Sequence record: PZ445418.1
Strand: one strand, 5' to 3'
Length of the DNA stretch: 43,104 bases
DNA from: a phage
Shown here: positions 4,005 to 38,982 of the stretch, one piece after another
Layout: each line of letters begins with the position of its first letter
Position numbering within the stretch: position 1 is the first letter of the stretch
Position numbers and translations under genes: made by a program
The notes under the pieces: generated by a model
Seen by the model: only the letters and a program-made list of their open reading frames with translations
Database searches by the model: none
What the model was told of the DNA's origin: nothing

Positions 4005-4305
4005 GTATGCAGCGATTGGGCTGGTAATTGGCCTGGCGGTTGGATTCTGGCAGGGTGATTCCTACCGCACTGGCGTTGAGGCGAGAGCGGCGCAAGAAGC
4101 GCAAGCGAAAGCCCAACGGCAGCAAACTAAGGTTGTCGAGGGGGCTGTGCAGGCAGAACAGGCCCGCGATGTGGAATACCGGACTATCACGAAAGAGGTT
4201 GTTAAATATGTTACGCGCCCTAACCGCCCTGATTGTAGTTTTGATTCTGAGCGCGTGCGGATCAAGCAACGTGCCATTGATGCCGCTAACCGAGTCGGTT
4301 TATAG
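3997..4305 (+). CDS. putative i-spanin (Rz-like)
   Basis: N-terminal TM helix (IKYAAIGLVIGLAVGFW) then Ala/Gln-rich helical domain; GTG at 3997 preceded by GGGGG; a TTG at 3967 is the alternative start. Confidence 0.4.
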   Translation: MIKYAAIGLVIGLAVGFWQGDSYRTGVEARAAQEAQAKAQRQQTKVVEGAVQAEQARDVEYRTITKEVVKYVTRPNRPDCSFDSERVRIKQRAIDAANRVGL

Positions 4306-4438
4306 ACCGCCTTGCACCTTTGAGAATGCCTCGGCAGACCCAGACGAAGACTTGCTTGTTGATGTTAAAAATATGGAGTGTGGGGCAAAGTTAAGGGCGC
4401 AAGTGCTGGAGTTGCAGAAAATAATTCGGGGGCCGTGA
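4208..4438 (+). CDS. putative o-spanin (Rz1-like lipoprotein)
   Basis: starts inside the Rz-like gene in another frame; lipobox LSAC after hydrophobic signal; RBS AAAGAGG 9 nt upstream of ATG; Pro/Cys-containing mature part. Confidence 0.45.
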   Translation: MLRALTALIVVLILSACGSSNVPLMPLTESVYRPPCTFENASADPDEDLLVDVKNMECGAKLRAQVLELQKIIRGP

Positions 4439-4452
4439 TGGCCCCTTTTTTG
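4428..4452 (+). terminator. intrinsic terminator
   Basis: GGGGCC-gtgat-GGCCCC hairpin followed by TTTTTT. Confidence 0.7.
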
Positions 4453-5217: not shown

Positions 5218-5246
5218 TTTTGCGTCCTCGTTGTTGGTGTGCAACC

Positions 5247-5275
5247 AATATATGCAACCAATACGCGGATTGCAA
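5247..5275 (-). promoter_or_regulatory. sigma70-like promoter TTGCAA-17-TATATT
   Basis: hexamers with 17-bp spacer on minus strand; two TGCAACCAAT copies (5240-5249, 5253-5262) overlap it. Confidence 0.5.
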
Positions 5276-10841: not shown

Positions 10842-10845
10842 CGAA

Positions 10846-11161
10846 GCGGGACAGGGGTGCTGTCCCGTTCTGTCCCGCCCACAATGAATCTGCATACCTA
10901 TTCAGTTTTACTGCATAAACTAAAAGCGGGACGGCGGGACGTCCCGATCTGTCCCGCCCCAGAAATGTGAATACCTATTCAGTTTTACTGCATAAAACAA
11001 ACGGGACAAAAAGCGGGACAGAATGGGGCGGGACAGATCGGGACGTCCCGCCGTCCCCCTCAGTGCTGCCGCGGGTTTCGGCCGATCGGGACAGGCGGGA
11101 CAACCACCAGTCTTTCAGACTAGACGGGGGTCAATGGCCCCCCTCGTCTGAGACTGAATAA
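10846..11161. repeat. iteron element A: GCGGGACA(G/A) array, two 26-bp box repeats, terminal GC-rich hairpin
   Basis: box ATACCTATTCAGTTTTACTGCATAAA at 10894-10919 and 10971-10996; about 9 forward and 5 reverse GGGAC units incl. palindromes GGGACGTCCC; hairpin 11107-11158. Confidence 0.8.
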
Positions 11162-11224
11162 GGTTTGTTTTAAATTCGCTGATACAATAAACGACGGCAA
11201 CTGCATAAAAAGGGGGACTGCATA

Positions 11225-21334: not shown

Positions 21335-21363
21335 AGTATTGCACCGCTCAACCAAGAATGCAA
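21335..21363 (-). promoter_or_regulatory. sigma70-like promoter TTGCAT-17-AATACT for lipoprotein gene
   Basis: hexamers with 17-bp spacer; -35 overlaps TGCAACCAAT (21359-21368). Confidence 0.4.
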
Positions 21364-21384
21364 CCAATTTATGAGGATTCAGCT

Positions 21385-25756: not shown

Positions 25757-25785
25757 AATATAATGCAACCAATAGGGTTATGCAA
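25757..25785 (-). promoter_or_regulatory. sigma70-like promoter TTGCAT-17-TATATT
   Basis: two TGCAACCAAT copies (25764-25773, 25781-25790); same hexamers as 38620-38648. Confidence 0.5.
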
Positions 25786-25790
25786 CCAAT

Positions 25791-28707: not shown

Positions 28708-28986
28708 CTACGCGACCAATTCAGCAACCAATAAATCACAGTCGGCTATGTTGTCGATAACGCGAACGTCAGCACCGCGGCGGGCCATTCTCACATGCTC
28801 ACGTACCTGGTGCGGCTTCGGTTTTCCGCCGGGGCGCTTCACTTCGACGAACACTATGATGCCGTTGATTATGATAATCAGGTCGGGCGCACCCGCGCGC
28901 CCCTCCCATGCCAGTTTGCGGCAGAAGCCGCCTACCTCTTTCACCCGTCGCATCAGGTGACTTTGAATCTTGCCTTCGGGTGTCAT
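28708..28986 (-). CDS. VRR-NUC domain nuclease
   Basis: DLIII...FVEVKRPGGKPKPHQ PD-(D/E)xK-like core; 92 aa. Confidence 0.65.
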   Translation of the reverse strand: MTPEGKIQSHLMRRVKEVGGFCRKLAWEGRAGAPDLIIIINGIIVFVEVKRPGGKPKPHQVREHVRMARRGADVRVIDNIADCDLLVAELVA

Positions 28987-29178: not shown

Positions 29179-31470
29179 TTACTTCCTGTATCGATACATA
29201 ATGTCGCCTTCCGCGGCAAGCGGGAAGCCTTTCGCCCAGATCGGCAGGTCGCACATCAGCGCGCATAGCTCCTCGGTCGTGTAGTCGTCAGTATCCGGCA
29301 CTTCGGTTATCAGTTCATCGTGTACGGACAGTACGATCTCATATCCCGCAGATTCAACGCCCGGCATGGACCATGCGAGGATATCGCGACACAGCGCCTG
29401 TACGATGTTTTCCGTGAGTTTGCCGCCGTAGGTGTACTGGAAGCCCCACTGGCGGGTCGTCTGATTCTCGCCCTGATATTTAATGCGGGTGCTGGTGCGC
29501 TTCTTGCCGGTATCTTCGTCGATCTCGGTAGTCACTGACAGCGCAATGCCCGGATAACTCATGATGCGCCCCGACGGCAACTCGATTTTCAACCACCACC
29601 CCGCGGCGTTCGGGTCGTCGCGCTCCTCGTCGAAGGTGGGGTCGTGCTTCGCCTTCGTGCGGACTATCTTGAGCGCTTTCTTGCCATCCGGGCGAACGTT
29701 CGCGCCAGCCCAGTACGCTTTGCCCGGATTGCGGATCGCGCAGAGCACCGCGTCTTCCAGTTCGGCCCAAAATGCTACCGTCTTCGGGTGGGCCTCACGC
29801 CACATACGTTTGATCGCATCACACGTCAACCATACGTTTTTCGGCAGTATATAAGTTGGGCGCTCGTCTTTCTTGCCAGGCTTCGGCGGTCGTTTCGCTT
29901 CGTTAATGCGGGCATACTCATAACCACGTTTCGCCGCGGCCCAAATATGATCGGGAAATGTGCCCTTCATGACGTCCGCCATCGCATACAGGTCGAGGCC
30001 CAGGTTTTTAGCAAACTGCAGGAACGCCGCCACGCCGCCGCCATAACCAAGTCCCAATTCGCACGCCTTACCAATCTGGCGCAAGTCTTTGCGGTTGGCT
30101 TTGATGTATTCCGGGTCGAGGCCGAACATCTTACCGGCAGTCTCGCAATAGATATCGCGACCAGCCCTGAACACCATTAGCGCGGTTTTCTCGCCGGCGA
30201 TCCAGGCAAGCCCGCGACCTTCCACGTTAGAATAGTCAGCTACAACAAACTTCTTGCCCTTAGCCGGGATAATGCACCCGCGAACGGTAGAGGCTGTTAA
30301 CTTCGATATGTCATACGCCCAGTGCGCTGTCCCGCGTAACAGGGAGTTGATGCCGTTGGTAAGCATGTGCGACCGCACCCAAAACGCGACGTCGCTCTCG
30401 CCATCACGGCGCTTAATCTTCCCTTCGGGGTCGTCGCTATACTCGCCGCGTGCTAGGTTTTGCGGCTGGAAGCCCTTACCGGCCCAGCGTAGCGTGCGCT
30501 TTGCCCCACCATACTGAAGACAACCACGGCGGCGACCATCGGCAGACAGCCCATTTACGAGCGGATTGTACTTGGTCGATGCCGTTGATGATGCTCCGAG
30601 GCGCATCTCGATAAGCACTTTGCCTTCGTCTGGGAAGTCCGGGTCTTCAAGCAGGTCGTTAAGCGTGGATTTCTGCGCGTTGTGGATTGTGAACGCAGGA
30701 GCGAGGTCGCGCAGCGCGGGCAAGAAGTCATTGCCGGTCAGCTTACCGCCGAAGCGCTCCCATGCTTCTTCCTTCAATTCTTCCTTATGCGCCTGTACCG
30801 CTTTGATCGCGGCGCGCGCCAGGTCAACGTCCACATAGAAGCCGCGGTCATTGATCAACTGGTCAATACGCAGGATTTCGTCTTCCTTCGGCGTGTTACC
30901 CCAGTCCGGTATGCGCCAGTAGACTTCCCTCATCGCTATAATATCCAGCGCGGCATAGCGCAGGAATTTAGCCCACTCCTCGGGGTGAGTCTCGCGCGTG
31001 TAGCGGCGGATTTTGTAAGTCTTAGGGGTTGGCTTACAGAATCGTTTAATCAGCGCCTTGCCCGCCTTATCCTTCGCGTGCTCTGCGTCAACGCCCAGCA
31101 CCTGGCATTGCATATCGAGGCTACCCGGCAGCGCGTGTCGAAAGGCCATAATCATGGTATCTTCGATCTGGCCTACCGGCAGGTCAATGCCCCACTTCTC
31201 GCGAATAACCAGGCGGTCAAACAGGAGGCCGTTAGCCATCACTATTTTAGCCTTCTTGCGGCATACCTGGCGGAGCGCCTTGCGCAGTTCACGCGGCATT
31301 GTTGGGGATTCAGTGGCGTCCCATGTCTGCACGCGGCCCTCGTCGATGGCGTATGTGCAAATCATAATCTCGGTGGTTGGGTGCTCTGCGTAGGCGTACG
31401 CCCCTACTTTCTTCAGGTCCACCCCGCTAAATGTCTCGGTATCGAGAAACAGGCGTTCGAAGTCTTTCAT
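29179..31470 (-). CDS. DNA polymerase, family A, with 3'-5' exonuclease domain
   Basis: N-terminal DTET exo motif; DYSNVEGR (motif A-like); KACELGLGYGGG (motif B-like); VHDEL (motif C). Confidence 0.9.
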   Translation of the reverse strand: MKDFERLFLDTETFSGVDLKKVGAYAYAEHPTTEIMICTYAIDEGRVQTWDATESPTMPRELRKALRQVCRKKAKIVMANGLLFDRLVIREKWGIDLPVGQIEDTMIMAFRHALPGSLDMQCQVLGVDAEHAKDKAGKALIKRFCKPTPKTYKIRRYTRETHPEEWAKFLRYAALDIIAMREVYWRIPDWGNTPKEDEILRIDQLINDRGFYVDVDLARAAIKAVQAHKEELKEEAWERFGGKLTGNDFLPALRDLAPAFTIHNAQKSTLNDLLEDPDFPDEGKVLIEMRLGASSTASTKYNPLVNGLSADGRRRGCLQYGGAKRTLRWAGKGFQPQNLARGEYSDDPEGKIKRRDGESDVAFWVRSHMLTNGINSLLRGTAHWAYDISKLTASTVRGCIIPAKGKKFVVADYSNVEGRGLAWIAGEKTALMVFRAGRDIYCETAGKMFGLDPEYIKANRKDLRQIGKACELGLGYGGGVAAFLQFAKNLGLDLYAMADVMKGTFPDHIWAAAKRGYEYARINEAKRPPKPGKKDERPTYILPKNVWLTCDAIKRMWREAHPKTVAFWAELEDAVLCAIRNPGKAYWAGANVRPDGKKALKIVRTKAKHDPTFDEERDDPNAAGWWLKIELPSGRIMSYPGIALSVTTEIDEDTGKKRTSTRIKYQGENQTTRQWGFQYTYGGKLTENIVQALCRDILAWSMPGVESAGYEIVLSVHDELITEVPDTDDYTTEELCALMCDLPIWAKGFPLAAEGDIMYRYRK

Positions 31471-35331: not shown

Positions 35332-35360
35332 ATATTAGATTGGTTGCAGAAGGGAGTCAA
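35332..35360 (-). promoter_or_regulatory. sigma70-like promoter TTGACT-17-TAATAT (leftward early promoter)
   Basis: good hexamers, 17-bp spacer containing TGCAACCAAT (35339-35348 on plus strand). Confidence 0.5.
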
Positions 35361-35536: not shown

Positions 35537-35866
35537 ATGAACGTAAACGACGCAATCGAAATGTTAACCAAGACTGTTTGCAGTGAGACAAGCCGGTCCT
35601 GGGCGTATACCGATGCCGTGGGGGCGGTGTTATTCGAGGTCGAACGTCTGCGCAGTGTAGAAAAAGAATTACGCGCCAGGCTGGAATTGCTCAACGGTAC
35701 GGCGGCGAGCAAGCTGCAAAAGCACAATGAGGAAATGGAAGAATACAAAAAGCAGGTTATCCGTTTGCGCGCCGAGGGAAAGTCATGGGCGATGATCGCG
35801 GAGTTGACAGGAATTAATCAGAGCACCGTGCGATCCTGGGTACGCAATAACAAAACTTCGAAGTAA
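35537..35866 (+). CDS. helix-turn-helix DNA-binding protein
   Basis: 109 aa, C-terminal GKSWAMIAELTGINQSTVRSWVRN HTH-like segment; GGAGA RBS. Confidence 0.55.
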   Translation: MNVNDAIEMLTKTVCSETSRSWAYTDAVGAVLFEVERLRSVEKELRARLELLNGTAASKLQKHNEEMEEYKKQVIRLRAEGKSWAMIAELTGINQSTVRSWVRNNKTSK

Positions 35867-35876
35867 GGCAACGGCA

Positions 35877-38141
35877 ATGAGCTTAATTAAATTCGCTGTA
35901 ACAAGACCCGCTAAAAAAGGCGAAAAAGCCAGGGCGGAAAACTTCCAGATGACGACCGATGAGTTTTTCGAATTTATCAAAGATGCGAAAGAAATCTCCT
36001 CGGTGCATATCAACAAGACCGAGGATAAAGCCGAGTATGCGCGCCGCAAGCGTAAGGCCGACGGCATCGTGGCGTATACCAGTGATGGATTGCGTCGCAA
36101 GACCAGTGCGGTGGACCGCTCGATCCTGTTCTTCGATATTGACCGTACCGACACCCGCACCCTACGCCGCTGCCGTAAGGCGTTCATTGACGCGGGTATG
36201 GAACACGTATTTCACACCACAACCGGCGACCGTCACCCACTGAAAGGCGGTATGCGTTGTGCCCGTTTCCTGGTGCTCACCGATAAGCCTGTACCGGCTG
36301 AAGACCTGGGCCGCGTCCAGTATGCACTACTACACCAACTGGGCCTGTCAGATGTGGACTTCGACGATTGCACGAAAGACACTAACCGCCTAATGTACCT
36401 GCCACATCAGCAGTCTGTCGTTAAGTGTCACTACGGCAAACGTGCCCGCGTCCGTCGTCTGCTTCGCCTGGCTGATAAGCTGGGAGTGGAAAAAGAGGAA
36501 GTACGCCGCGAACTAACCCAGGGCGATGACGGCGTGGCAGACGGTATTCTGGATTGGTGCTTCCAGGCGGGATTCGAACCGCTGTCGTCCGGTCGTGGCT
36601 ATGAAGTGCCGTGCCCGAACGAACACCTGCACAGCGGCGAAGGGTCCACCGCTATTATGGTTAAGGATGGCGAGATCCGTTTCAAGTGTATGCACACCGG
36701 AAACGAGTGCTGTTCCGAACTGAACAGACACCAGCACCTGGCGCTACGTCTTATAGGGATCCCGGACCACCTGAACGTCGAACCGCACAACATGTCACGT
36801 AAGCAAATCGCCGCCATCCTCCCTGGACTGGACGACGAGGAAGTCGAATCGTGCTATGAACATATTGTTGATGCAGTTGGCGACGGCGAAGAATACGGCG
36901 TGTGCACCGATGCGGATCTGGATAACGAGCCGGTCGCACTCTTCAGTAAGCACGACCCGATCATAGAAGGCCTGGTAAACTTCAAATCGACCTGGTACAT
37001 GGCTGGCGAGTCGAACATCGGTAAATCGTTCTACGTGCTGGGGCAAATGGGCGCGGTTGCCGCGGGGATTCCGTTCGGTGGCGCGAAGGTAGTCCAGTCT
37101 CATTGCTTCTATTTCGACGCGGAAGGTGGTGAAGCCTCCAACCAGCGTAAAGAAGCATTGCAGATTAAATACGAGCACGACCTGGACAAGCTGCACATTA
37201 TCGATCTGCAATCACGCGGCTGGGATATCACCAGCAAATCCGGCTTGCGTGAAGTTATCAGCTTCATCAACCGCACCGCTAACGGCGAGCCGGTTGGCCT
37301 GGTGGCGTTCGACTCACTCAACCAGACTGTTGCGCTGCGGTCCGCCGATGCAAAACCGTTCGACGAGAATAACGCCAGCGATATGGGTGAAGTGGTCAAA
37401 GCGCTGAAGGCCATTGCGGAAAATACAGGCGGCAGTGCGGGCGTCATCCACCACCCAGCGAAGGGTGCAAACGGCAGCAGATCTCCCCGTGGGTCCGGCG
37501 CGCTTCATGGTGCTGTCGATTCTGCGTTCTTCCTGGAACAGCCGGACGACAACCAGCCAGGCCAACTCAACCTGTACCATGAAAAGGCACGTAACGGCAT
37601 CAAGCAAGCGCCGCGCGGCTTCGTCCTGCTTAAGTGCAAGGTTAAGGTGGATCTCCGCAAGTCCGAGGCGTTCGAAGCCCACCAGTCCACCAGCACCGGG
37701 CCGGACTTCGGTGATGTGGTTGCCGGATGGGACGTCAAGCCAATTGCCTCCACGCCACGCGACGAGACTCTCTACCTCGTACCGGTCGCCCTGGCGCCGT
37801 TCGCTATCGAACAGGCAAAGGCAGCGGGCAAAGCAGCAGTTAAGGAAGAGAACACCGCCGGACCGCGCAACGAAAAAGAAAAGGTACTTTACGCGGCGCT
37901 GGAAAAACTGATGGAAGACAACCCGGACCATACCGGATTCAGTAAATCGGCAATTGTCCGCCAGGCGGGATTGGCAAAAGGTGGCACATCGACGAAGGCA
38001 ATCGACGATATGGTCGAGCGCGGAGTGCTGGGTTTTTACACCGATCCGCACACTGGGGCCATCTATGGGTCGTCGAATATCGTCATTAAAACGAATATAC
38101 CCATCACGCTTTCGGCGACCGACGAAGATTTAAAAGATTAA
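35877..38141 (+). CDS. primase / replicative ATPase fusion protein
   Basis: 754 aa; Cys/His cluster CPNEHLH...CMHTGNEC; Walker A GESNIGKS and Walker B-like LVAFDSLN in C-terminal half. Confidence 0.7.
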   Translation: MSLIKFAVTRPAKKGEKARAENFQMTTDEFFEFIKDAKEISSVHINKTEDKAEYARRKRKADGIVAYTSDGLRRKTSAVDRSILFFDIDRTDTRTLRRCRKAFIDAGMEHVFHTTTGDRHPLKGGMRCARFLVLTDKPVPAEDLGRVQYALLHQLGLSDVDFDDCTKDTNRLMYLPHQQSVVKCHYGKRARVRRLLRLADKLGVEKEEVRRELTQGDDGVADGILDWCFQAGFEPLSSGRGYEVPCPNEHLHSGEGSTAIMVKDGEIRFKCMHTGNECCSELNRHQHLALRLIGIPDHLNVEPHNMSRKQIAAILPGLDDEEVESCYEHIVDAVGDGEEYGVCTDADLDNEPVALFSKHDPIIEGLVNFKSTWYMAGESNIGKSFYVLGQMGAVAAGIPFGGAKVVQSHCFYFDAEGGEASNQRKEALQIKYEHDLDKLHIIDLQSRGWDITSKSGLREVISFINRTANGEPVGLVAFDSLNQTVALRSADAKPFDENNASDMGEVVKALKAIAENTGGSAGVIHHPAKGANGSRSPRGSGALHGAVDSAFFLEQPDDNQPGQLNLYHEKARNGIKQAPRGFVLLKCKVKVDLRKSEAFEAHQSTSTGPDFGDVVAGWDVKPIASTPRDETLYLVPVALAPFAIEQAKAAGKAAVKEENTAGPRNEKEKVLYAALEKLMEDNPDHTGFSKSAIVRQAGLAKGGTSTKAIDDMVERGVLGFYTDPHTGAIYGSSNIVIKTNIPITLSATDEDLKD

Positions 38142-38260
38142 ATTTTGCGCGCATTGGTTGCCGATATGGGAATTCCCATATCGCTAAAAGGTTAAATTTT
38201 GCGCGCATTGGTTGCCATTTTGAGTGTTTTTATTTGGTCGTATTGGTTGCCGTGTAGTGT
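38138..38260. repeat. direct repeats flanking a perfect 20-bp palindrome
   Basis: TTAAATTTTGCGCGCATTGGTTGCC at 38138-38162 and 38192-38216; palindrome GATATGGGAATTCCCATATC at 38163-38182; third ATTGGTTGCC at 38242-38251. Confidence 0.75.
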
Positions 38261-38268
38261 AAATATAG

Positions 38269-38463
38269 TGAATAGTTATGCAGTTTTATTGCATAAAGTA
38301 AGCGGGACAGAAAGCGGGACAAACAAGGGGCGGGACAAAGCGGGACAGCACCCCCGTCCCGCCCCGGATGGCGCGGCTTCCAGAGGAGCGGGACAGCGGG
38401 ACAGCACCCCAGTCTTTCAGACTAGACGGGGGTCATCGGCCCCCCTCGTCTGAGACTGAATAA
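38269..38463. repeat. iteron element B (second copy of element A)
   Basis: box TGAATAGTTATGCAGTTTTATTGCATAAA, six GCGGGACA(G/A) units, terminal hairpin differing from copy A at only 2 positions. Confidence 0.8.
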
Positions 38464-38619
38464 AATCCGGGGGATTGCAAAATACACGGCAGCATGTTGC
38501 GAAGTGCGGTCGCGGATGAACTAGGCAACCAATGCGAGATGCATTATGCGGAGTGAAAAACACAGTTTGCAGTTGCAGCAGATAGCGATCAACTTTTTCA
38601 TGCGCATGTTTGATATTGG

Positions 38620-38648
38620 TTGCATCCGCCCTAGCACCCTGCTATATT
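38620..38648 (+). promoter_or_regulatory. sigma70-like promoter TTGCAT-17-TATATT
   Basis: flanked by ATTGGTTGCA at 38615-38624 and 38645-38654; leader matches the one upstream of 4453..5217. Confidence 0.55.
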
Positions 38649-38676
38649 GGTTGCACACCAACAAGAGGACTGAACA

Positions 38677-38982
38677 ATGAAAGCGATTATCTGGAATTAC
38701 TCCCTGGCCGTGGCAAAGCTGGACGAAGCGAAGGCACTAAACAGCAACGTAGATCAGGCGCTTCAGGTTGCGATACTGGCGCATCAATCCCTTCGCAGCG
38801 CGCTCTATGGCATGGGCGCCAGCATGGACGAACTGAGGCCGTTGCGTATGGCAATCCACGAATACGCGCGGGCATTCTCCCGTGAGCGCCTGGCGTATCG
38901 CTTCGGTATTGGCGATAAGGCAGTGACAAACGTCGCCAGGATTAAAGCCCAGCGCGAGCTATTCGCCCAGCTTGCGAAATAA
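38677..38982 (+). CDS. hypothetical protein
   Basis: 101 aa helical protein, RBS GAGGA. Confidence 0.5.
   Translation: MKAIIWNYSLAVAKLDEAKALNSNVDQALQVAILAHQSLRSALYGMGASMDELRPLRMAIHEYARAFSRERLAYRFGIGDKAVTNVARIKAQRELFAQLAK

Follow-up and report, generated by a model that had tools for sequence, protein, structure and literature searches.

A short-repeat element beside the helicase-primase gene as a candidate replication origin of Dhillonviruses

The DNA considered here (record PZ445418.1; "the window" is the whole stretch of 43,104 nucleotides) comes from a Dhillonvirus, an HK578-like virulent siphophage of E. coli. Our subject is the 535-nt gap between the gene for a 754-aa helicase-primase (35877-38141) and a 101-aa open reading frame (ORF; 38677-38982). 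Rightward genes run from ~35.5 kb to the end of the window and on to ~24.5 kb, and leftward genes occupy 24.8-35.4 kb. The 2-kb stretch around the gap shares 86-91% identity with GeorgBuechner/Bas16, bob, and HK578 and with over 150 further records. A preliminary description of this DNA had listed 25-bp direct repeats, a 20-bp palindrome with an EcoRI site, a third site, an AT box, iterons, an inverted site, and a promoter, all of which we recovered at the same positions, and had proposed that together they form a replication origin. In the literature on Dhillonvirus and its relatives, we found no paper that maps or proposes an origin. For comparison, we used 20 IMG/VR loci and 157 GenBank records matching the core element as Dhillonvirus panels, and the complete genome of Salmonella phage SE1 together with 17 of its IMG/VR relatives; L-numbers designate loci of relatives. 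The counts of GCGGGACA, ATTGGTTGC, and ACGGCA(A/G)C were each compared with 100 shuffles.

Our argument centers on one part of the gap, a core that we call element B. Its left side lies in the AT-richest stretch of the region (38255-38300; 72-80% A+T in 25-nt windows), where the AT box GTGAATAGTTATGCAGTTTTATTGCATAAAG occupies 38268-38298. An array of iterons follows on the plus strand (38302-38403), starting 160 nt past the stop codon of the helicase-primase gene. Its seven GGGAC units (38304-38402) consist of GCGGGACA in direct orientation at 38302, 38314, 38330, 38340, 38388, and 38396, and of GTCCCGCCCC in inverted orientation at 38356-38365. These repeats are 8 bp long, with start-to-start spacings of 12, 16, 10, 48, and 8 nt, and the region does not hold the 17- to 22-bp helically phased iterons of the classical RepA/pi/TrfA plasmid origins. 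Across the genome, GCGGGACA is present in 15 copies against 2.1 expected, a count reached by none of the shuffles, and 12 of the 15 are found in two clusters. GGGAC by itself is not enriched (58 copies vs. 76 expected), yet 22 of the 58 fall in those same two clusters. To the right of the array is a compound inverted repeat of 49 nt (38410-38458; CAGTCTTTCAGACTAGACGGGGG-loop-CCCCCCTCGTCTGAGACTG) that can be read as a long three-helix hairpin or as three adjacent palindromes. It was not listed in the preliminary description, is conserved, and folds as single-stranded DNA (ssDNA) with a z score of about -3.9. The element ends with ACGGCAGC (38486-38493, plus strand), a copy of an over-represented 8-mer that is conserved at this place in most of the lineages examined.

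The second cluster belongs to another copy of the core, element A, which lies on the plus strand at 10843-11201, where an unusual gap of 385 nt separates the tail-chaperone gene from the tape-measure gene. Element A is the richer of the two, with 15 GGGAC units (9 direct, 6 inverted), AT boxes at 10884-10920 and 10967-10998, a hairpin at 11108-11156, and, on its 3' side, TGATACAAT (11180-11188) and ACGGCAAC (11194-11201). Positions 38266-38464 align with 10966-11162, and both copies have their parts in the same order: an AT box of the form GTGAATA..TAT.CAGTTTTA.TGCATAAA, four direct GGGACA, an inverted GTCCC, a GC-rich spacer, two more GGGACA units, the 49-nt inverted repeat, and ACGGCA(A/G)C. 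One genome therefore carries the same short repeat at two separate sites (10846-11102 and 38302-38403). A 205-nt core was found at 353 places in the 157 GenBank records, nearly all of them Dhillonviruses, with at least two places per record, and every Dhillonvirus examined had both A and B. The two copies of one genome have private variants in common, for example a spacing that is 1 nt shorter in L013/L031, and the sequences suggest that A and B evolve in concert. SE1 has only the primase-adjacent cluster in its 41-kb genome and no element A; judging from this one complete genome, the copy next to the primase appears to be the ancestral one and copy A to be specific to Dhillonviruses.

Several smaller observations concern these two elements. 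The TGATACAAT downstream of hairpin A is invariant and resembles an extended -10, and two copies of CTGCATAA stand immediately before and over the start codon of the tape-measure gene (11225). TGCATAA occurs 13 times against 5.3 expected, with six copies in elements A and B. Within the AT box (38276-38296), TTATGCA and TGCATAA are separated by 7 nt that come in two reverse-complement forms; the window has GTTTTAT, and roughly half of the other Dhillonviruses have ATAAAAC (L001, L005, L008, L012, L017, etc.). This is a flipped quasi-palindrome center, as expected from template switching or hairpin-mediated inversion. An ORF of 61-84 aa over the repeats, annotated in GeorgBuechner, was rejected as protein coding: non-triplet indels between A and B place the repeats in different frames, and G-rich DNA naturally lacks stop codons. 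Finally, TGTGAATAG agrees by eye with a DnaA box at 7-8 of 9 positions, which is too weak to claim.

The helicase-primase gene (35877-38141, plus strand) encodes an N-terminal primase-like region, a zinc-binding motif, a RecA-type AAA_25 helicase, and a predicted C-terminal winged helix. AAA_25, a RecA-type and RepA/DnaB-like family, is the sole Pfam match of the protein (residues 357-531). PHROG 3228, "replicative helicase-primase," matched over the full length, primase PHROGs matched residues 15-177, and the domain layout is also backed by alignment with relatives. The predicted winged helix covers residues ~666-737 (37872-38087, plus strand), and its recognition helix, H3, covers residues 703-715 (37983-38021, plus strand; GTSTKAIDDMVER). 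A homology search with the C-terminal 130 aa alone gave 2 matches, and the full-length protein was used instead. In a sequence search of the PDB, the helicase-primase had no match at E <= 0.01 and hence no solved-structure relative by sequence. The phage has no separate Rep gene besides its own helicase-primase, unlike classical iteron plasmids, in which a dedicated Rep initiator binds the iterons and recruits DnaB of the host. A 763-aa ORF at 29179-31470 was assigned as the family-A polymerase of the phage by synteny with L055. In HK578, mutants that escape the OLD defense system map to the helicase-primase and to the promoter of the gp45-gp46 operon, the two genes of which are regarded as replication-initiation genes by the authors of that study (bioRxiv 10.64898/2026.07.10.737580).

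Comparison with more distant phages shows which properties of the element are maintained. The primase of SE1 is 44% identical to that of the window, relatives with this layout have primases 44-49% identical to it, and the same layout comes directly after the primase stop codon. In SE1-like phages, the order is AT boxes, direct repeats, inverted repeats, spacer, repeats, hairpin, ACGGCARC, and promoter, and SE1 has GGGGGAGA where the window has GCGGGACA. This layout is kept in 11 of the 17 relatives of SE1, with lineage-specific repeats that read GGGGGAGA, CGGACAA, CCGACA, or GGGATAA. The number, order, and spacing of the repeats are conserved while the repeat sequence itself is replaced between lineages. 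Boxes of the form TGAATAGTTAT(G/T)C are conserved regardless of repeat type, in two direct copies in SE1-like phages; in L060, the AT boxes are inverted as a unit relative to the repeats. Furthermore, a compound inverted repeat of 50-70 nt follows the last repeat units in every lineage. Its arms vary (AGTCT/AGACT, ATCATC/GATGAT, TCCTC/GAGGA, and GATCAC../..GTGATC), with pairing always kept. As ssDNA, 9 of 11 lineages fold with z scores between -3 and -5.5, about equally well on either strand, with a slight advantage for the minus strand in 13 of 16 sequences. For most lineages, a palindrome-GC palindrome-palindrome reading of the inverted repeat, with one dyad site in duplicate, is equally available; L061 favors the long hairpin, and several SE1-like lineages have an inverted repeat unit within the hairpin loop. 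An alignment of hairpins from different lineages with MAFFT and RNAalifold was not structural and gave 5 pairs only, and per-sequence folds with shuffles were used in its place.

Further evidence connects the repeats to the recognition helix. Outside the last ~100 residues of the primase, identity is equal within and between repeat groups (~0.85 vs. 0.83). Over those last ~100 residues, identity is 0.78-0.87 within groups vs. 0.50-0.54 between them, and the group-specific residues fall in the turn and the first half of H3 in the predicted winged helix. Specifically, KGGT-STKAIDDM in Dhillonvirus is paired with GCGGGACA, KGGD-RYKILKDL in SE1, L038, and L053 with GGGGGAGA, GGGN(Q/S/A)RRR..VKE in L039/40 and L049-51 with CGGACAA, DGGR-RRPAxxAL in L041, L042, and L054 with CCGACA, and AGGN-RRPA(M/L)KAL in L048 with GGGATAA; the H3 segments are KGGTSTKAIDDMVER in the window phage, KGGDRYKILKDLA in SE1, and DGGRRRPAVIALAER in the CCGACA type. 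Two CGGACAA lineages that are otherwise different have a unique 2-residue insertion in common, GGGN(Q/S/A)RRR. Four further H3 types are paired with GGGATC, GGGACA (twice), and TTGCGAGT. When the repeat type was predicted blind from the H3 motif of three unseen proteins, the DNA of which was fetched only after the prediction, all three predictions were correct: CCGACA for P0081 (9 copies found), CGGACAA for P0114 (8-9 copies), and GGGATAA for P0084 (7 copies). The flanking genes do not co-vary with the repeats, as identities within and between groups were 0.33 vs. 0.34 for the upstream helix-turn-helix (HTH) protein and 0.17 vs. 0.17 for the downstream ORF, and identical upstream HTH proteins were found with CCGACA, CGGACAA, and GGGGGAGA elements. 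This co-variation points to an iteron sequence that is matched to its cognate winged helix.

Our results suggest that the core at ~38268-38493 is probably a replication origin of the self-loading initiator-helicase type, comparable to those of Staphylococcus aureus pathogenicity islands (SaPIs) and phage P4 and bound by the helicase-primase. The origin proposed in the preliminary description is therefore retained for the AT box and the GGGAC repeats, to which the comparative evidence applies, and given up for the direct repeats, the palindrome, and the ATTGGTTGC/GGCAACCAAT sites. Whereas the analysis itself provides the anatomy of the element and how it is conserved, the predicted winged-helix fold, and the repeat/H3 co-variation, the steps by which such an origin would work are ones that we infer. 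The C-terminal winged helix would recognize the 8-bp GCGGGACA repeats, and a ring assembled from several bound subunits would open the neighboring AT-rich TGAATAGTTAT box, which we propose as an unwinding element, a site for a host factor, or both. The RecA-type helicase would then encircle ssDNA, the N-terminal primase domain would make the first primers, and the phage polymerase A would extend them. Once the duplex is open, the inverted repeat may extrude and thereby hold the region open or aid loading or priming. Element A could be either a second origin or a partner site like crr of P4.

Yet, a number of findings sit less well with an origin at this place. The element is missing after the primase in six relatives (L043-47 and L052); a search of relatives of this kind for a repeat cluster elsewhere gave only a weak, displaced partial copy (L043, L052), which we did not use as evidence. 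GGGACA-like repeats accompany three different H3 sequences (Dhillonvirus, L060, and L063), a many-to-one relation. In addition, fewer than 250 bp separate the winged-helix codons from the repeats, and a mosaic block inherited as a whole could account for part of the co-variation, although simple linkage is unlikely as the full explanation because the equally close downstream ORF does not co-vary. In copy B, the repeats, with one inverted unit, lie only to the right of the AT box; in copy A and in the SE1-like elements, they occur to its left and right. A dyad within the AT box, GAATA-NN-TATTC, is perfect in copy A and SE1 and ends in TATGC in copy B, and the resulting GAATA-NN-TAT(T/G)C palindrome could be an operator rather than an unwinding element. 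Finally, the cumulative GC skew, which the preliminary description had put forward as a check, has its minimum at ~35 kb, where promoters diverge, and not at 38.3 kb, with a maximum at ~24 kb; it follows gene orientation and is not diagnostic.

An argument can be made that the element serves transcription. Under such a scheme, the winged helix or another factor would bind the GGGAC repeats and the palindrome of the AT box as operators, for autoregulation or for a switch from the early replication operon to lysis and structural genes, with element A acting likewise before the tail genes. Both copies do precede gene blocks within the long plus-strand transcription unit, the region is rich in promoter-associated ATTGGTTGC sites, and hairpin A is followed by the conserved extended -10-like TGATACAAT. 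The AT-box dyad would suit an operator, and phage RP180 has, next to a repressor-like gene, a promoter of the sigma-70 type that related TGAATAGT..ATTA sites overlap. We nevertheless consider this control function unlikely. The co-varying domain belongs to the replicative helicase-primase and to neither flanking regulator, 7-15 short repeats with an AT-rich box right after an initiator-helicase gene are the signature of a SaPI-type origin, no consensus promoter or terminator was detected in the core, and the inverted AT boxes of L060 mean that there is no fixed promoter reading into the repeats. If the duplicated element of 200 nt instead acted as RNA, it would be a structured leader, a small RNA, or an antitermination element of the put/nut kind. 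It would be transcribed together with the late genes and form the GGGGCGGGAC/GTCCCGCCCC hairpin and the long terminal one. In keeping with this idea, there are two copies, both sense to the long plus-strand transcription unit, the plus-strand fold has a z score of -2.6 with 0 of 200 shuffles folding as well, and the hairpin arms change between lineages with pairing kept. However, the minus strand folds as well or better in 13 of 16 sequences, with no plus-strand G-U signature, and Rfam 15 gave no match for the whole window at gathering thresholds or for 38100-38700 at E <= 1. Repeat units point either way, most of all in copy A, and the AT boxes can be inverted. Moreover, the arms could equally owe their complementarity to a single palindromic DNA site present twice, and the repeat sequence tracks a DNA-binding winged helix, all of which makes a role as RNA quite improbable.

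It might also be supposed that the element is a chance or selfish spacer, duplicated, generated by recombination, or resembling a miniature inverted-repeat transposable element, and that the co-variation reflects a shared recombination block. The neighboring direct-repeat/palindrome module is indeed a dispensable indel, copy A looks like a Dhillonvirus-specific insertion, and some relatives lack the element after the primase. Against these points, the core is kept at both sites in all 157 matching GenBank records and persists across clades with primases that are 44% identical. Conserved repeat number, order, and spacing alongside a replaced repeat sequence, three correct blind predictions out of three from the recognition helix, and an equally close downstream ORF that does not co-vary leave us to regard a functionless spacer as very improbable.

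The origin that we propose resembles several characterized systems without matching any one of them. At SaPI origins, experiments have shown that a C-terminal winged helix binds iterons of 5-6 nt, 6-12 of which lie immediately downstream of rep, that the AT-rich region at the center has iterons of opposite orientation on its two sides, and that the helicase self-loads without a loader (PMC9371898). Like SaPI Rep and PriRep, the phage protein would be initiator and replicative helicase in one, a protein that in PriRep5 is also fused to a primase, with a C-terminal winged helix for origin specificity and short iterons right downstream of its gene together with an AT-rich region. In contrast, its helicase is RecA-type AAA_25 and not superfamily 3, the repeats are 8 bp and not 5-6 nt, and those of copy B are on one side of the AT box only. 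The phage further differs in its compound inverted repeat of ~50 nt, its conserved TGAATAGTTAT boxes, and its two copies per genome, as well as in the type of host and virus, being a virulent enterobacterial siphophage. A superfamily 3/AAA+ helicase core homologous to SaPI Rep was not found, since Pfam gives AAA_25 only. The alpha protein of satellite phage P4 combines primase, helicase, and a C-terminal winged-helix origin-binding domain, the structure of which has been solved, in one polypeptide that recognizes 8-bp repeats (TGTTCACC) in two separated clusters, ori and crr. The Dhillonvirus would share this arrangement of one protein with primase, helicase, and a predicted winged helix and of 8-bp repeats in two separated clusters on the same genome. 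However, P4 alpha has a superfamily 3 helicase and an unrelated primase domain, ori and crr are 4.5 kb apart vs. 16 or 27 kb between the phage copies, and the P4 sites have no conserved hairpin. No homology to P4 alpha was found by PDB sequence match (E <= 0.01), and the helicase class differs too. Since its helicase core is of a different class (AAA_25), the phage system is an analog and not a member of the SaPI Rep or P4 alpha families.

Two plasmid systems offer partial parallels. RepA of the IncQ plasmid RSF1010 is the prototype of the AAA_25 helicase family, and its oriV has iterons, an AT-rich segment, and the hairpins ssiA and ssiB, which serve as primase start signals. The phage likewise combines an AAA_25 helicase with iterons, an AT-rich segment, and conserved hairpins. 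In RSF1010, however, the three activities reside in separate proteins (RepA, RepB', and RepC), the iterons are 20 bp long and bound by RepC, and the ssi hairpins form an oppositely oriented pair. In the archaeal plasmid pRN1, the cis element contains a putative stem-loop, and we know of no iteron array described for this plasmid. ORF904 of pRN1, a prim-pol/helicase, is similarly a multifunctional primase-helicase with a winged helix and a cis element downstream of its gene, but it has a superfamily 3 helicase, and the element is not duplicated. That cis element is reported to be essential and to lie 166 bp downstream of orf904 (PMC4234260).

The most conspicuous features of the gap are outside the proposed core. 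A polymorphic module (38131-38216, plus strand) contains exact 25-nt direct repeats, TTAAATTTTGCGCGCATTGGTTGCC, at 38138-38162 and 38192-38216, which lengthen to 32 nt with one mismatch (repeat 1, 38131-38162; repeat 2, 38185-38216). Repeat 1 starts just ahead of the stop codon of the helicase-primase gene (38139-38141), within its final codons. Between the repeats is a perfect palindrome, GATATGGGAATTCCCATATC (38163-38182), which contains an EcoRI site and extends to 22 bp with the flanking C/G (38162-38183), and the module also holds two ATTGGTTGCC sites (38153 and 38207). Among the 20 IMG/VR Dhillonvirus loci, 9 have a single repeat copy and no palindrome, missing a 54-bp unit of palindrome plus repeat 2, and 1 of these 9 also lacks the ATTGGTTGCC of the remaining repeat. 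The palindrome segment was found in 70-71 GenBank records, compared to 157 for the core element (~45% of Dhillonviruses, with ~55% lacking it), and where present its center is often imperfect (GATATGTGGATTCCC, GGGGATTCCC, and GGGAATCCCC) without compensating changes. Judged by this distribution, the module is a dispensable 54-bp insertion polymorphism, and repeat 2 seems to have arisen when the primase gene was partially re-duplicated at its 3' end. The palindrome and direct repeats cannot be the essential core of an origin because natural isolates without the module exist, which means that nature has already performed the experiment of deleting the palindrome.

The ATTGGTTGC sites, which had also been counted toward the origin, likewise lie outside its core and belong to the promoter and regulatory system of the phage. 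With up to one mismatch, ATTGGTTGC has 24 copies in the genome against 12.1 expected, a number reached in 0 of 100 shuffles, and six are counted in the 535-nt gap; exact copies outside the gap are at 5.2, 21.4, 25.8, 28.7, 35.3, and 39.2 kb. A third ATTGGTTGCC or ATTGGTTGC(C) site (38242-38251, with the site proper at 38242-38250, plus strand) is conserved just upstream of the AT box and overlaps the reverse complement of ACGGCAAC (38246-38253). The inverted GGCAACCAAT, which is ATTGGTTGCC on the minus strand (38524-38533), is conserved in Dhillonviruses. Two further ATTGGTTGC copies (38615 and 38646), missing from the preliminary description, overlap the promoter of the downstream operon (ATTGGTTGCAT; 38615-38654, plus strand), which has a -35 TTGCAT (38620-38625), a 17-nt spacer, and a -10 TATATT (38643-38648). 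A second ATTGGTTGCA overlaps the -10, and a leader, ACACCAACAAGAGGA, comes before the ATG at 38677. In 20 genomes, both hexamers are retained at a distance of 17 nt, whereas the sequence between them drifts. This is the footprint of a real promoter at 38620-38648. A generic scan for sigma-70 promoters and terminators found no enrichment and no consensus promoter or terminator in the core, and it missed this TTGCAT-17-TATATT promoter.

The placement of the motif is regular elsewhere in the genome. In four cases it starts exactly 28 nt ahead of a TATAnT-like hexamer (TATATT for 38615 and 25790, TATAGT for 28732, and AATACT for 21368), which makes TTGCAT or TTGCTG a -35 element with a 17-nt spacer, and a fifth promoter-like arrangement at 5.2 kb uses a degenerate ATTGGTTGC copy. 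In the divergent L032/L055 lineage, the motif copies upstream of the AT box are inverted, and SE1-like phages have ATGTTGGCTGC in the equivalent places. ATTGGTTGC/GGCAACCAAT thus behaves as a genome-wide, promoter-associated factor-binding site and not as an origin iteron. We also noted a promoter family with ATTGGTTGCA(T) at 5241-5262, 21360-21368, 25765-25790, and 28712-28732 on the minus strand and at 35339-35347 and 38615-38654 on the plus strand. In this family, TTGCAT is the -35, 17 nt before TATAnT, and a second copy of the motif often lies in the spacer or over the -10; the leader ATATTGGTTGCACACCAACAA.GAGGA is common to the promoters at 5.2 kb and 38.6 kb. The shared motif and leader suggest a single regulon, and a 109-aa HTH protein (35537-35866; Pfam HTH_23/Sigma70_r4_2-like) is a candidate ATTGGTTGC binder.

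The most unexpected observation of our analysis is the over-representation of the 8-mer that closes both elements. Among the 8-mers of the genome, ACGGCAGC and ACGGCAAC take the top two ranks, and ACGGCA(A/G)C is present in 51 copies vs. 4.8 expected, with 0 of 100 shuffles reaching 51. There are 39 copies on the plus strand and 12 on the minus strand, a bias found in the rightward gene blocks, with a ratio of 5:5 in the leftward block; examples are 38486-38493 (plus), 11194-11201 (plus), and 38246-38253 (minus). Copies occur in all reading frames and in five intergenic places, without conserved flanks. SE1 has 29 copies in the same pattern, and RP180 has 7 in 7 kb. In both A and B, one copy lies ~28-37 nt after the hairpin, and almost every SE1-like lineage examined has an equivalent copy. 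The reverse complement of ATTGGTTGCCGT is ACGGCAACCAAT, and the 8-mer and the promoter motif hence have a GGCA(A/G)C core in common. The 8-mer could act as a signal, for priming or in the manner of Chi, or as a binding site. In a broader and rather doubtful scheme, two iteron origins (38.3 kb and 11.0 kb) would be read by one winged helix, the 8-mer would be the signal at which the primase starts Okazaki fragments, and the H3/repeat pairs would be a swappable specificity code.

Other observations concern the phages themselves and the surroundings of the element. No tRNA genes were found. GenBank records, MG065648.1 among them, that are labeled as Campylobacter phage A144 and as an Acinetobacter and a Salmonella phage contain the Dhillonvirus element at 88% identity or more, and their host labels may be wrong or the records contaminated. 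A protein with an Nmad5 (nucleotide-modification-associated) domain is encoded near the replication module in relatives (L055, 22016-22253; L060, 1-521), which hints at DNA modification in this phage group. In the same intergenic zone, relatives carry microsatellite-like arrays, with (GCAGCATG)x6 right after ACGGCAGC in L052 (6930-6990) and (CACACG)n in L055 (12580-12615). In L060 (~4230-4445), the ORF after the element is made of ~15-nt tandem repeats (GGGGC[CT]AACTTGTCC) and resembles a pentapeptide-repeat protein.

Phage therapy and studies of defense systems make wide use of Dhillonviruses and of Salmonella phages from the related Guernseyvirinae-like group. For these phages, the candidate origin is now precise, consisting of two coordinates, one protein domain, and about eight natural pairs of repeat and recognition helix. 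Contrary to what would naturally be assumed, the conspicuous palindrome is not the functional center. Reading the core as an origin accounts for the fact that the defense-escape mutations of HK578 fall in this operon. More generally, our findings suggest that the SaPI/P4 design, in which a winged helix is combined with short iterons downstream of its gene, has also been built on a RecA-type, RepA-like helicase. The repeat/H3 pairs represent a set of orthogonal origin-initiator pairs for engineering; if the broader scheme described above is true, they would form a natural and readable specificity code that could be swapped to re-target origins, and if the 8-mer is a start signal for the primase, the phage genome would encode its own sites for lagging-strand priming.

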